Notes under the pieces: generated by a model
Seen by the model: the letters and a program-made list of their open reading frames with translations, nothing else
Database searches by the model: none
What the model was told of the DNA's origin: nothing
Program-made: the position numbers and the translations under genes
Assembly: GCA_965235115.1 (NCBI GenBank)
Contig: OZ249436.1
Coordinates: 32,862,001 to 32,926,000, forward strand
From: Laetmonice hystrix
Lineage: Eukaryota
Direction of reading: 5' to 3'
DNA length: 64,000 bases
In this document: positions 1-7,430 of the stretch, one piece after another
Numbering within the stretch: the first letter of the stretch is position 1
How the letters are laid out: each line of letters begins with the position of its first letter

Positions 1-2389
1 ACTGGCCAACCAGAAATGCACGCTAATTTTTATGAATGCGCCTCAGGCAGTGCTGTAATCTGATTAGTTCTTGTATGTACTGAACGAGGTGGAAAACAGA
101 TGGCGCTGCGAAGTACGCGTTTCTGAGAATAGGCAGGCAGTGGGGGGGGGGGGGGGGGGGGTCACTGGAAGCGGTTCAACCTCGAGCGTGGGAGGATAGC
201 ATGAAGGTAGCAGCAGGTCGACCTTACCCTGCGCGACAGAACAGTCGGAAGTGGCTGATTCAGGGGTGCCCACCGGGCCCGGCCCCCCTGTTTTTCAAAA
301 TCTTACATATTTTCTATGTTTCATGCGTACGAATAATGGAATTTCGTTAAAAGATTTAGAAATTTCTACTCTATTATATATGCCCAGTTCAGAAAACACA
401 TCTACGGCGTCCATGAAAACAATTTCTGCGGGAGGGCCCCCAGACCCCCCGAAAATGGGCCACCGATTATCCACCAAAAGGCGCCCCCCCCCCCCTCCTT
501 CCTGAAATCCCGGATCCTCCACTGGTCGGCGACTGGATTTTCAGGCTGTAAGTTTTCGGACAGTTAAAAATTCAGGGCATAGACTACTGTAAGCCTATTC
601 ATTCTAAATCGCCATAACATTAGTCATTCAAACAACGACGTATAAAGAGACATTGATCGATATCTGTATGAGACGAGAGAGAAAACGACAACTCTGAGGG
701 TTTCTTTTTCATCATTAGGGTCCTGATACAAAAATATTTACACAGAAGGTGCACTGAGCTCTCAGAGGACAGTGCGATATCACAATTTGCTTGTTGCTTG
801 GCAGGAACTGTCGCTAGGGATGACGGGTAACGTAGTAAGACCTCGTCGCGTTCGTCAGGATGACGCGCGAGGAACGCCACGTCGCCGATACAGGAAGACA
901 TCCTTTTTACGTCGCTCTTCTGGTCTACTTCCATATATTCTTAAACATGTAAACTTATTTTACAGTGTATGGATGTTAAGATCGCATGGTTATAAGAGCA
1001 CCTCATAGCTGAGGGCAAAACGTACCACACTCCGAGATATGAATCTCAGAAAGACAATCAGAATTATGTGGTCGAACGAAAAGGTGATGTATAGTTCGAA
1101 GACAATGACACCGCATGCATCAATATGTAAATACACTGGTCCTTTGAATACATTTCGTGTAACAATTCTTTTTCACCTGTGCAATTTATATTTCTGGTTA
1201 CTTTTTTTGCGGTGTGTGGGGGTCTTCAGAAAAGCCTCCGTAAAATTAGGCTTCTCTGTTTTCTTTGTTTAAAGAGAATTGGAAATAAGTATTCGAAGCG
1301 CTCAATTTTAGTTCGATACATGTACATATTATCTTGTATACATGCAGGTGGTCTTCGAGAGGAGCTCGTATGTAGCCTACATATACAGGTCTATGTATTA
1401 GTATAATATGAAATTCATAATACATCTATACTTGGGTCCGGTTTCTAAAAGGTAGCATTCGTACACTATTTAAACATGGCACCTGAGGGGTAAGACTTCT
1501 TTGTATCCCTTCACAGATGGTCTCAAACATGGTTTACTGCATTAGTCACAGCCGTTCTCCTTGAAACGTTTAGGGCATGGTTACTAACAAACGACACGGG
1601 CTGTTTGATAAATAGACAGGAACGACCGAGTGTGATGATACGGAAAGCTGTATCGGACGAGGCGGCAAGCGCGGAGTAATATCAGCACGAGCCCGATAGG
1701 GCGAGTGCTGATGTAAAACTCCGCGCTTGCCGCCGAGTCCGATACAGCTTTCCGTATCAGCACACGAGTTTGTTCCTGTTTTTATTACCCCTTTCTACAA
1801 TGTAACGAATATTATGTGACTAAGAAATAACATTTTGGCAAGATCAAGAGGAAAAACCATCCTAGGTCTATGATCTATATACTTGAAGCAACAAACGTCT
1901 GGTCGTTTGTTATTTGTGACGTCGTCGTTTGTTCAAAATCGATCTATGCGCTAGGCAACAAACGTCATCATCGTTTGTTATTTGTGACGTCGTCGTTTGT
2001 TATCAGTGACGTAACATAAACTTTGTAGAGAGGAAACTGTCCACCGAGCTGCTCCGCTAGATCGACTAAATCATGTATTTCAAGACGTACGAAAGTTTGC
2101 TAAGCTTGAGAACTTTTGAATTATGCATAAAAAACGTAGAGAACCAGTTGAGTAAGAGTTCTGAGGACTGCTGAGTCAGTTTAATTCAGTATTCTTGAGA
2201 ATAAGCCACTTCACAGTCTCGAGTGCGCATGTCTGAAACACACTTCCGGTTGTCCGCCTCGGGATAAACAAACCGATCAGCTGGCCGCATGGCGTACGTT
2301 TTGACCGGTGAATCCTAGCAGCCAGTACGTCATTCCACTGCAGTTCTTCACATATGCAGGTATGGTACACTTATTATTACAAAGAATAC

Positions 2390-3435
2390 CAGTCACTGAG
2401 TCTGTGAGCGGCAGCTACTGTCAGTGACAACAGTGTGAGCGGCGATTACTGACAGTTCAGTGATGTCGGAACAGGGGGGGCCGGGGGGGCCATGGCCCCC
2501 CCACTTTCAAAAGTGGGGGGGCCATACTATGGTTTGGCCCCCCCACTTTTCAGGGATGTATTGTGGCAAAACAATATAGGCCCCCTACAGCTGAGTGTCG
2601 GATAGGCCTAATAATATTGTGTTCCCAGATGCCATGAAAACGCGTATTTGGCACTTTAATTTTCTTTTTTTTTCTGGGGGAGGACCCCCAGACCCCCCAA
2701 CCCCGGCTCAAGGCTTCGCACCTTCGGCGCTCCCATGACCAGCATTTCAAATCTTGGAACTTGATTCCTCTGAGTGGGCACCTAACGGTCCACATTCGCC
2801 GAGTGGTCACCCCCCCCCCCAAAAAAAAATGTTCTGGCTACGCCTACGGGGCCTATATAACTCGAGTATGTTAGAACAGTTTGGCCCCCCCACTTTTTTT
2901 TGGCTTCTGACATCACTGCAGTTGTTGTGAGCGGCGGTCATGACGAACCCGTCATGACTGAGTCTGAGGCGGTCACTGACACTGACACAGTCACACACTG
3001 TGACACAGTGACACTGACAGTCAGTGACACAGTGACAGTGACAGTTTCTGGCAGCACCAGAGCAGAGGGAGGGGCTAGACCTCTGCGCCAAGGTCTACCA
3101 GATCGACGACAGCTTCACCCCCGGTCCCCAGCAGCACATCCACCCCGTAGAGCCTGGCAGGGATAAGGCCCTTGACTCAAGCCTAGTCAAGCCTCAAGGG
3201 CTTGAGATCGCCGCTGAGATGAAGCAGAAAGCCAACCAGCATTATTTAATTTTAGCAGCAGGTCTTCATCTCAGCCACCACCGTCGACTTACTCAAGTTA
3301 CTGTATAAATTAAAATAATGTAATGATTTTCCATCAAACCATCAAAATGTTTGATCAAAATCATCAAAATTCCATCGATAGTTCCATCAAAATTATGCCG
3401 CTCACTGTCACAGTAACTGCCGCTCACAGTGACTG
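2390..3435. mobile_element. MITE with cagtcactg..gtgagcggcag TIRs, nested in the ISL2EU-like element
   Basis: Inverted ends at about 2390-2450 and 3397-3435. Confidence 0.55.
2458..2918. mobile_element. CAG...CTG MITE with 5-bp TSD (hAT5-like)
   Basis: TIR cagtgatgtc/gacatcactg, TSD cagtt. Confidence 0.7.
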
Positions 3436-3459
3436 CTGCTCACAATGAATGCCCCACCT

Positions 3460-3800
3460 AGGGTGTCTAGAAAAGTAAGACCTAGAAAAGTAAGACCTAA
3501 GACCTAGAAAAGTAAGACCTAGAAAAGTAAGACCTAGAAAAGTAAGACCTAGAAAAGTAAGACCTAGAAAAGTAAGACCTAGAAAAGTAAGACCCCCCCC
3601 CCCTGGTGGCACTCCTAGGGTAAGATTTTACCCTTATCCATTTCTATTTTTTAGCAAGCAGCTAGGTCTTACTTTTCTAGGTCTTACTTTTCTAGACACC
3701 CTGAGGAAAAGTAAGACCTAGAAAAGTAAGACCTAGAAGAGTAAGACCCCCCCCCCCCCCCCCCGGTGGCGATCCTAGGGTAAGATTTTACCCTTATCGC
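3460..3800. repeat. 15-bp minisatellite (gacctagaaaagtaa)n with an inverted block
   Basis: About 8 units at 3466-3593, inverted units at 3662-3700, more units at 3706-3748. Confidence 0.9.
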
Positions 3801-5810: not shown

Positions 5811-5910
5811 CAATCTAATTAAAATTAGGTCTTAGTTATTTCGCATGCGCTCCAGCACTGAAACAGCCGAGAGAGAAGCGGAATACCAAGATCTAATTTT
5901 AATTAGATTG
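5811..5910. mobile_element. 100-bp MITE with 9-bp TSD (MULE-like)
   Basis: TIR caatctaattaaaattag, TSD acactcaac; interrupts the ISL2EU-like ORF remnant; related copy at 38349-38472. Confidence 0.8.
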
Positions 5911-7065
5911 ACACTCAACCGGCCTTGCTCTAAGGTACGGTAGTCCTTCTGAGGAACAGCGTTTAAAATCGTTATCGTTATTTTAAAAATTATTAGAGCT
6001 GGCAGAGCCAGAGTGCTCCAACGTGTCTAACGTAGTCTAACGTGTTATAGTAGATCTAGGCCTAGAGATAGATCTAGTGTCTAGCCTCTACTCTAGATCC
6101 TAATCCCCTCAAATTTGTGCCTGTGCCAGGTTGTGGCTGTGGCGGCACTCTAATTAACCGTTAACCGGCGTTAGCTAGCTGACTCCCTAATTCTAAAGTT
6201 TGGCATAGCCTAGGTCTAGGCGCCGAAACCGGGGGGGGGGGGCAAAGGGGGCCGTTGCCCCCCCCCAACTCAAAAGCTGATTGGGGGGGGGGGCAAGCAT
6301 ATAGTCCCCCCCCCCCCCCCCAGCTAAAGTTGGTCAAAGGTGGCAGGAGATGGTCAGACCGTCAGAGGGCCTAGTCCTTCCGGCGCTAACGTTATGTGTA
6401 TGTGAGGCTATGTTTGGCCGGCGTATGCGTAGCCAACTCCTGGATGTTTTCTAATAAAATACTCAGTCAACCATAAAACAACGTTTGAAATCTTCATTAT
6501 TTAGCCTATATGGGCAGTCGTCCCGCAAACTTTGATATTTTTATCCAGATATACCTTGCTAGAGACAGTTAGAATGTTCTGAATATATGAGCGATATTAG
6601 AGCGTTTTAGTGAGGCCAGCCGGTTTGTTTATCCCGATGCAATCCCATGATGCTTCGCGCGCGCTGAGACCGTGAAGTGGCTTATTATCGAGGTGCTGTC
6701 CCAGTTTTCGGCGAAGACGGTCTGAATTAGGCCACGCCCCCTCAATGAAATACTCACCACTGATTGGTCATAAAACTCGGTCAAGGTGTATCTGGGTCAG
6801 TGAAGGCGACTGATACAGGATTTCGAATATCCGTATCACACGCCTCCCTAACCAATCAATGAGCTTCGTTTAGAACTGTGCACAGTAGCTTCAGCCAATC
6901 AGATTACTCCGTTCACCCCAAAGGGGTAATAAAAAAAAAGATTATCTCCAGTCAAGAAGACTACATATCTCAAGGTGTTATGTGACAGTTTCAGTACGTT
7001 TAAGCTACAGATCTCAAGGTGTTATGTGACAGTTTCAGTACGTTTAAGCTACAGATCTCACGATG

Positions 7066-7430
7066 TTATGTGACAGTTTCAGTACGTTTAAGCGGGGATT
7101 TTCTCGTATAAACAACGTTGTTGTCTGCTGTTGCGGAATACACGTCTGTGTAGAGCTACTGCTGTGGCTCCATGTCTCGAATGTTCCTTTGGTGATCAAG
7201 GTTGGCAGAAAGAACTCCGGAATCCAGTAGACAATCGGTCTCTGACGAGGCATGCGACTCCATGTCCTCCTTGTTGTCCACCACGATGGTCGGTACAGGT
7301 ATGTAGTCTTTATGGTTGGCATTCATTTTACTGTCCTCCTCCTCCTCTTCCATTCTTCCCTCATTCATTAAAGGGTTAGGCCTACTTTTCCGCTGCCGTT
7401 TATTTTGATGGAATACAGACGATTTAAACA
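7066..7430 (-). pseudogene. Truncated, frameshifted copy of the guanylate cyclase terminal exon
   Basis: Encodes [12 protein letters not shown]...[45 protein letters not shown], as in 56047-56430. Carries indels and lacks the 5' half of the exon and its acceptor. Confidence 0.85.

Follow-up and report, generated by a model that had tools for sequence, protein, structure and literature searches.

A probable local segmental duplication of the end of a guanylate cyclase gene near a CACHD1-like gene in Laetmonice hystrix

A partial duplicate of the guanylate cyclase gene

The 3' end of a membrane-type guanylate cyclase gene occurs twice, in direct orientation, within the window (the whole 64,000-nucleotide stretch of Laetmonice hystrix DNA that was analyzed). 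The arrangement is best read as an ordinary local segmental duplication that left a partial gene duplicate. The initial annotation had described a direct repeat of 1-1612 plus 6931-7429 against 54306-56438, which self-blastn and pairwise alignment bore out, and had explained it by a tandem copy of a whole unit of about 49 kb (7430-56440), a model that sequencing depth and the structure of the junction argue against. The features of the duplicated region are the following:

1 to 1612, minus strand: first part of the left copy, a duplicate of cyclase 3' untranslated and downstream DNA (counterpart 54306-55916) that exits through the window edge
1613 to 6935, minus strand: non-coding Helentron/HINE-like insertion in the left copy only, delimited by the empty site at 55910-55917 in the right copy and by its repeat ends
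6933 to 7429, minus strand: second part of the left copy, taking in the downstream half of the last cyclase coding exon and the beginning of its 3' UTR
7428 to 7440, no strand: duplication junction, bridged by contigs of public runs X1 (record 6, 7344-7632) and X2 (record 14, 7344-7619)
7430 to 18600, no strand: repeat-rich spacer with no recognized gene and no family match at a curated cut-off
54306 to 56438, minus strand: right (parent) copy, running on without a break into the intact cyclase gene

Self-blastn aligned 1-1612 with 54306-55916 (99.13% identity, 1614 columns) and 6933-7393 with 55914-56371 (93.2% identity, 470 columns), both in the same orientation. Pairwise alignment with indels carried the match on to about 7429/56438, its end point being blurred across about 7428-7440 by weak similarity. 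To the left the match reaches base 1, confirming the claimed run-off at that edge. The visible repeat of 2.1 kb thus comprises two near-identical copies of more than 1 kb at separate places, as in a segmental duplication. The copies are offset by 54,305 nt, a distance that includes a 5.3-kb insert found in the left copy only, and the window is without any N. Scanning metagenome contigs for an exact 30-nt stretch of the shared segment gave no match.

Differences between the copies are unevenly distributed. There are four substitutions in 1-1460 and five in 1461-1612, and 6933-7429 differs from 55914-56438 by 13 substitutions and 7 indels. The substitution rate jumps from 0.3% to 2.8% at about 1460 (4 substitutions over the 1460 nt before it, 18 over the 640 nt beyond it; p 8e-7 in a Fisher test). 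Contigs cover 488-1609 with 0-1 other letters.

The repeat does end abruptly inside the last exon of the cyclase, as had been claimed. The break sits about 345 nt within the terminal coding exon, which on the minus strand runs from 56781 to the stop at 56047-56049. In the left copy the exon fragment runs into a premature stop at 7156-7158; it looks dead and is predicted to encode nothing useful. Five cyclase exon queries against 1-54305 found no match better than E 0.07, and the upstream exons are absent there. The idea that the fragment is fused in frame to an exon upstream was rejected, as its frame is closed by a stop at the junction.

The insert in the left copy

In the insert of about 5.3 kb, subterminal inverted repeats of 16 nt lie at 1779-1794 and 6920-6935; a long hairpin occupies the 3' side (1616-1779, z -18.1), and short repeats are nested within. 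The insert entered a run of A/T. The empty site showed no target duplication, though a short one made of A/T letters may be hidden there. In runs X1-X3, contigs of the interior reached 5.4-9.0 times the depth of 7799-8109. With subterminal repeats, a 3' stem-loop and a T-rich unduplicated target, the insert appears Helentron-like and would fit a HINE, a non-autonomous Helentron. According to excerpts of two descriptions of HINE/DINE-1 elements (PMC4067079, PMC7492417), it shares with them the subterminal inverted repeats, the 3' stem-loop, the want of coding capacity, the short inverted repeat beside the 5' repeat, and the T-rich unduplicated target. It differs from them in its length of 5.3 kb and its nested repeats and, when compared with the mite families in those excerpts, in a 3' hairpin of about 165 nt instead of 5-10 nt and a distance from 3' repeat to end of about 170 nt instead of 38-60 nt. 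Bypass of a Helentron end as the cause of the duplication was rejected on the argument that sequence resembling the parent copy continues beyond both edges of the insert.

The junction at 7430

Contigs bridge the junction in two of the four public runs among the 32 pieces listed. All four runs (X1-X4) represent a single sample, which may be the one that was assembled. The bridging contigs extend without gaps 86 letters to the left and about 190-200 to the right of 7430. Both begin at 7344, exactly 30 nt short of a left-specific substitution at 7374; such a start would follow from the presence of both forms, left and right, among the reads. The two contigs differ from the window by 5 and 4 letters, which indicates a second version of the junction region. 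The initial annotation had proposed a check for long reads that span 7430; contigs of X1 and X2 run through it unbroken. Since the bridging contigs come from two runs, the join is unlikely to be an assembly artifact.

These observations bear on the proposal that two haplotypes of one locus were strung together by the assembler. Such an origin would account for the 99% identity, which lies within the differences between contigs and window (0-5 per 260-310 nt), and frame-restoring indels in the left copy suit an allele; with a spacer specific to one haplotype, the depth ratios by themselves (2:1:1) would agree as well. However, the window has no gap and the junction recurs in contigs of two runs, a test that covers the 7430 join. 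The junction contigs carry other letters, and a third variant is present in 168-459, where contigs of X1, X2 and X3 each have one letter that matches neither window copy. The proposal needs in addition a spacer/CACHD1-like misjoin and one haplotype without most of the cyclase, and we give it a low probability. Excerpts of Ko et al. (2022, PMC9516828) list half depth, gaps, discordant reads, and a lack of heterozygous variants as criteria of false duplication. With the false (heterotype) duplications of those excerpts the window shares adjacent near-identical copies and a partial gene copy, but it is gapless, its junction is found in public-run contigs, and there is variation across that junction.

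The junction also raises the matter of a retrocopy: the left copy would be the 5'-truncated 3' end of a cyclase mRNA that LINE machinery placed 49 kb away from the parent without a change of orientation. The copy begins in the last exon and holds no intron, although no intron is crossed from there. About 15 nt to the right of the junction, upstream on the minus (sense) strand, lies a T/A site that resembles the LINE-1 endonuclease consensus, with a chance rate of 0.3-5% depending on the motif set. A single-copy spacer and an unbranched junction fit as well. Against these points, the motif was noticed post hoc, the weak similarity may carry the copy some 10 nt further, into what would be the target duplication, and a landing less than 50 kb from the parent would be rare a priori. 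The poly(A) tail and the second target copy would fall beyond the left edge of the window. Altogether, we regard a retrocopy as improbable. Were it true, the copy would be predicted to end at the counterpart of a candidate polyadenylation signal at 53534-53539.

Sequencing depth and the extent of the duplicated unit

Depth was a single figure per contig; it is not a copy number and has no genome-wide or diploid baseline. Run X4 was left out of the ratios: it is smaller by a factor of ten, its depth pattern differs, and its kind of library is not on record. Relative to 7799-8109, shared pieces in 488-1609 gave 1.66, 1.51, 2.09, 1.57, and 1.79, with a mean of 1.72 (contig depth, no genome-wide baseline). 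Three pieces in 168-459 gave 1.25-1.47 and were excluded from the mean because they carry other letters. In X2, shared pieces stood to the junction contig as 0.91, 1.10, and 1.53. Over all eight pieces, the shared segment had 1.25-2.09 times the depth of 7799-8109, to the right of the junction. Within the spacer, 7799-8109 and 11790-12050 lie at about junction depth, and contigs over 7799-8109 in X1, X2, and X3 carry no letter other than those of the window. The predicted ratio of shared segment to spacer is 2.0 for a nearby insertional copy, 1.0 for the literal tandem, and 1.5-1.67 for the three-copy product of an unequal crossover.

A single recent tandem duplication of 7430-56440 would explain the shared orientation, the close spacing, and the exit of the copy through the left edge. 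However, besides a shared-to-spacer ratio of 1.0 where 1.25-2.09 was observed, it predicts a junction-to-spacer ratio of 0.33-0.5 where 0.89 and 1.37 were observed. A second left neighbor of 7430 should also break the contigs, which instead run through. Nor does the start of the claimed unit, from 7430 onward, appear twice with a second left neighbor, given that 7799-8109 is near junction depth and its contigs are unbroken and match the window, keeping in mind that contigs drop rare variants. The depth of the shared segment and the unbroken junction contig together argue against the literal tandem, which we hold to be very improbable.

Other candidates in the spacer did not survive scrutiny. 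A promoter-like reading of 7700-7920 was dropped, depth at 7716-7752 being in the tens of thousands, as in a high-copy repeat. A gene at the open reading frame 12711-12989 was rejected, with no Pfam hit and with Atlas hits that were weak, unnamed and of low recognition. Rfam gave no matches in the window.

Origin of the left copy

We favor, at a little better than even confidence, a local insertional duplication in the same orientation, in which a segment ending at about 56438 was joined to unrelated DNA at 7430, and not a clean tandem of 7430-56440. A segment ending in the last cyclase exon would have been copied and joined at a point about 11 kb downstream of the CACHD1-like gene, probably by template switching or end joining at a homology-poor join, and the DNA right of the junction would not be part of the copy. 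The bridged junction, the absence of N, the lack of other cyclase exons left of 54305, and the mean depth of 1.72 (against 2.0 predicted) support this explanation; against it, that mean fits the three-copy product of an unequal crossover about equally. The divergence step at about 1460 may reflect later gene conversion or a source haplotype that was distinct from the parent copy before the duplication, the latter being suggested by the frame-restoring indels in the tail of the left copy. The insert may have entered before or after the copying, and no insert-free joint was present among the pieces listed.

Local segmental duplications can leave partial gene duplicates. The window agrees with this general class in the direct orientation of copies tens of kilobases apart, in their 97-99.7% identity, in a breakpoint within an exon, in the dead fragment, and in a later mobile-element difference between copies. 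It differs in its sharp internal divergence step.

That step speaks for a two-step history, in which an older short copy of the cyclase end underwent unequal crossover with the parent at about 1460. The crossover would have doubled the whole interval, so that spacer, junction, and CACHD1-like gene would recur in near-identical form to the left of the window. The observed depth of 1.72 is close to the prediction, and an unbranched junction at spacer depth is both expected and seen. However, the older copy must be identical in 607-1589 to give 1.5-1.67; at about 3% divergence the ratio would be lower, 1.0-1.3 by our rough estimate. Gene conversion or a mosaic source allele accounts for the step with fewer events, and we consider the crossover rather unlikely. 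It would rescue by another route the predicted second CACHD1-like gene. A retrocopy seed followed by unequal crossover, yielding a young and possibly copy-number-variable CACHD1-like pair whose amino-acid pocket was already rewritten, is a far-fetched combination.

Under the favored insertional duplication, the copy would have to reach more than 6.1 kb leftward to take in the CACHD1-like start codon and more than 36 kb to take in the whole gene. A second CACHD1-like gene would follow if the copy extends that far (more than 36 kb) or if unequal crossover occurred between two repeats. We consider a putative second copy left of the window plausible, at appreciably less than even confidence.

The CACHD1-like gene and its cyclase neighbor

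The features that surround the right copy are the following:

18631 to 48188, minus strand: CACHD1-like gene, a model of 21 coding exons and 1165 aa with VWA and Cache regions and one C-terminal transmembrane helix
53534 to 53539, minus strand: candidate signal, the first canonical polyadenylation hexamer 3' of the cyclase stop (scan of 53001-56050, 2 hexamers)
56047 to 63960, minus strand: last five coding exons of the membrane-type guanylate cyclase, a gene that continues beyond the right edge
about 63820-63955, 59100-59323, 57388-57500, 56990-57105, and 56047-56781, minus strand: the individual cyclase exons, from exon translations

The claimed CACHD1-like gene was upheld by a model that is open throughout, without internal stop, and in which all introns are GT-AG; as modeled, the gene is intact. 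The model aligns at 24-26% identity with all seven full-length homologues, which bear VWA and dCache_1 Pfam hits, placing its architecture in the CACHD1 clade. Source names were CACHD1 or CACHD1-like in three of the seven homologue clusters asked, with one 'partial', and homologues in Lingula and Ruditapes are named VWFA and cache domain-containing protein 1. A dCache_1 match on 36398-36709 (E 5.5e-4) fell below the curated cut-off, and a hydrophobic helix spans model residues 1092-1110. In motif alignments the first Cache pocket has lost the amino-acid-binding motif. The second dCache_1 retains Tyr, Trp, and the final Asp, with Arg replaced by Lys and the second Tyr by Arg, so that the intact motif given in excerpts of Gumerov et al. 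(2022, PMC8915833) is absent there. With the CACHD1 clade of these excerpts the gene shares a VWA among Cache regions and a single C-terminal transmembrane helix, but it stands apart in its 24-26% identity to its best relatives and in its altered or lost pocket motifs.

The right copy had been placed directly upstream of this gene. It is upstream, but 6.1 kb away (start codon 48188 to 54306), across an interval that holds tandem arrays and dispersed repeats. A profile search of 3369 open reading frame segments of the window recovered one exon series only, with no second CACHD1-like gene inside the window. A word-based protein search with the VWA exon yielded none among 48 candidates. HMMER with the Cache exon returned 19 proteins, all at 40% identity or less; the protein collections thus reveal neither the organism's own protein nor a paralogue.

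The cyclase had been called receptor-type, and its catalytic domain agrees with this (Guanylate_cyc, E 1.5e-26). The best solved relatives of the catalytic exon are NPR1 (E 3.7e-32) and GC-C (E 3.8e-24), with soluble cyclases at E 5.7e-16. As read from sequence, the domain is nearer to membrane than to soluble cyclases and is predicted to be NPR-type. The receptor, transmembrane, and kinase-homology parts fall outside the window. The gene resembles NPR1/GC-A and GC-C in its catalytic exon and differs from them in a long low-complexity tail after the catalytic domain.

Implications

As seen in the window, the duplication is of little consequence, since both partial gene duplicates and CACHD1 paralogues of invertebrates are already known; excerpts of Gumerov et al. 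(2022, PMC8915833) describe CACHD1-clade paralogues in varying numbers in non-vertebrate animals. Searches of titles and abstract beginnings, with subscription journals and supplements outside their scope, found no report of a tandem CACHD1 and guanylate cyclase locus, and CACHD1 was not mentioned among the best 20 of 2,927 literature matches on its expansion in annelids. The Cache-domain gene and the cyclase are neighbors here, and we claim no functional link.

The more testable object in the window is the predicted intact, divergent CACHD1-like gene with its altered ligand motif. Should the left flank contain a second, near-identical CACHD1-like gene, the locus would be a datable case of family expansion outside vertebrates, of modest weight. 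If the seed was a retrocopy, it would carry more weight; a gene's own transcript would then have seeded the amplification of its neighbor.

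The duplicated cyclase 3' end and its insert

The same-orientation repeat described in the initial annotation was confirmed by comparison of the window, which is without any N, with itself, and direct alignment extended the match of its second piece, indels included, to about 7429/56438:

1-1612 versus 54306-55916, same orientation: left part a, 99.13% identity
6933-7393 versus 55914-56371, same orientation: left part b, 93.2% identity

The right copy forms the 3' end of a guanylate cyclase on the minus strand, whose catalytic exon matches Guanylate_cyc (E 1.5e-26) and lies nearest to NPR1 and GC-C among the 35 solved sequences matched. 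The breakpoint falls within the terminal coding exon, as annotated, about 345 nt inside by alignment. The DNA separating the two left pieces is missing in the right copy, where the insertion site, an A/T run, is intact. This insert carries a 16-nt repeat close to either end in inverted orientation, and a long hairpin (z -18.1) lies at the left end. Its anatomy fits that of non-autonomous Helentrons in PMC4067079 and PMC7492417, although its hairpin is much longer than theirs. Since contigs of three runs show the interior at 5.4-9.0 times the depth of 7799-8109, a reference inside the spacer, the insert belongs to a small family. We consider the duplication of the cyclase 3' end with its Helentron-like insert to be real, ordinary and local.

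Judged from sequence, the left cyclase fragment is most likely dead, because no upstream cyclase exons were found for it, its own frame meets a stop right at the junction and there is a premature stop as well. Its indels in the exon, grouped after the fact, form four sets (-9; +6; -31 with +1; +4 with +2) that each sum to a multiple of three, the last enclosing a stop 26 codons early. In 7063-7429 versus 56044-56438, these frame-restoring indel sets contrast with the premature stop and with substitutions that, by eye, mostly change amino acids. An intron of the cyclase contains a 3.7-kb element (~60050-63810) whose ends are palindromic and which holds an (ACT)29 microsatellite as well as arrays of 146-nt monomers, a build resembling the satellite-carrying HINEs of oyster in PMC7492417; a 145-nt array related to these monomers occupies 49705-50375.

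Junction and contig depth

Four public sequencing runs of one sample (X1 to X4), which may be the assembly's source, cover part of 1-10000 (shares 0.64, 0.60, 0.59 and 0.29). Their contigs were compared with 1-20000, and the results concern the 32 pieces listed. Support across 7430, for which the initial annotation had proposed long reads as a check, was found in contigs of two runs: among these pieces, the junction is crossed gap-free by X1 record 6 (7344-7632, 5 other letters) and X2 record 14 (7344-7619, 4 other letters), and by none from X3 or X4. Both bridging contigs begin at 7344, 30 nt ahead of the substitution specific to the left copy (7374); if both forms occur in the reads, this is the point at which a 31-letter graph would be expected to branch. 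Contigs of X1, X2 and X3 covering 168-459 each show one letter matching neither window copy. An assembly artefact is considered improbable. Of the marks of false duplication described in PMC9516828, a gap and an unsupported join are absent, and the region does show variation.

Depth per contig gives only a rough indication and is not to be taken for copy number; within this limit, the five shared pieces in 488-1609 gave ratios over 7799-8109 of 1.66, 1.51, 2.09, 1.57 and 1.79 (mean 1.72, n=5), and over the junction contig of 1.64, 1.85, 0.91, 1.10 and 1.53. The 168-459 pieces (1.47, 1.25 and 1.29; n=3) contain other letters and were for that reason excluded from the mean. Junction/spacer depth was 0.89 and 1.37. 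A fresh tandem of the whole 49-kb unit 7430-56440, as originally put forward, predicts a shared/spacer ratio of 1.0, a junction/spacer ratio of 0.33-0.5 and a contig branch at 7430. The data showed none of these, and this model is disfavoured. Depth disfavours it only, because the other models predict 1.5-2.0 and 1.0: two copies with a single spacer would give 2.0 and 1.0, as would false duplication with a haplotype-specific spacer, and three copies from unequal crossover 1.5-1.67 and 1.0. An imperfect palindrome at 7700-7790 resembling a bidirectional core promoter is, by contig depth, a high-copy repeat instead.

History of the duplication

Divergence between the copies is stepped, with 4 substitutions in 1-1460 versus 18 in the other 640 aligned bases (p 8e-7). 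The simplest reading would be a source haplotype with a translated cyclase tail, or gene conversion that later affected the part left of 1460; unequal crossover at about 1460 is an alternative. A retrocopy is possible: the copy begins within the last exon, and an endonuclease-like site, of a kind expected by chance at 0.3-5% of window positions, lies at a distance of 15 nt from the junction. The prior of this reading is low. With the first poly(A) hexamer located at 53539, a retrocopy would be predicted to extend some 0.8 kb beyond the window.

The CACHD1-like gene

Between the two copies sits a CACHD1-like gene:

48188 to 18631, minus strand: gene model of 21 exons, all GT-AG, 1165 residues, stop-free

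Some exon edges of this model were hand-picked, and it may lack a small exon close to the start. The model shows 24-26% identity to all seven long homologues and one strong hydrophobic helix close to its end. The Cache exon search returned 19 relatives; six of the seven looked up come from Lingula, Capitella, Pinctada, Ruditapes and Ridgeia, which makes a lophotrochozoan the probable source of the window. A splice acceptor at 48221, upstream of the first coding exon, implies an unseen 5' UTR exon. Just upstream of that exon, a 258-nt tandem array (48701-49644; 3.7 copies, 92%) abuts the 145-nt array. Intron 27462-33054 holds a decayed DIRS/Ngaro-type retroelement (~28500-31600, plus strand) with a 121-nt tandem array, a reverse transcriptase-like ORF by eye (30371-30847) and a weak RT_RNaseH match (30851-31114, E 0.005). 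Another intronic stretch, 22775-26294, is an 880-nt inverted repeat pair (90.5%) around ~1.8 kb, within which lies, by eye, an endonuclease-like LINE remnant (24361-24868).

Adjacency is the sole link found here between this gene and the cyclase, and no published CACHD1-guanylate cyclase tandem locus was found among titles and opening lines of abstracts of the papers retrieved. A profile search of 3369 ORF segments recovered a single CACHD1-like exon series in the window; 6.1 kb separate the gene's start codon from the closest base known to lie in the duplication. Unequal crossover at ~1460, if true, would place another CACHD1-like gene to the left of the window; summed over all readings, we regard such a putative gene as somewhat doubtful. 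An array would be unsurprising, because CACHD1 paralogues occur in varying numbers in non-vertebrate animals according to PMC8915833, which also describes an amino-acid-binding motif for the CACHD1 clade. Seven aligned homologues mostly keep the residues of this motif, whereas here the first pocket has lost it and the second has it in altered form. The predicted protein is very divergent and, from its sequence, a candidate for a changed ligand.
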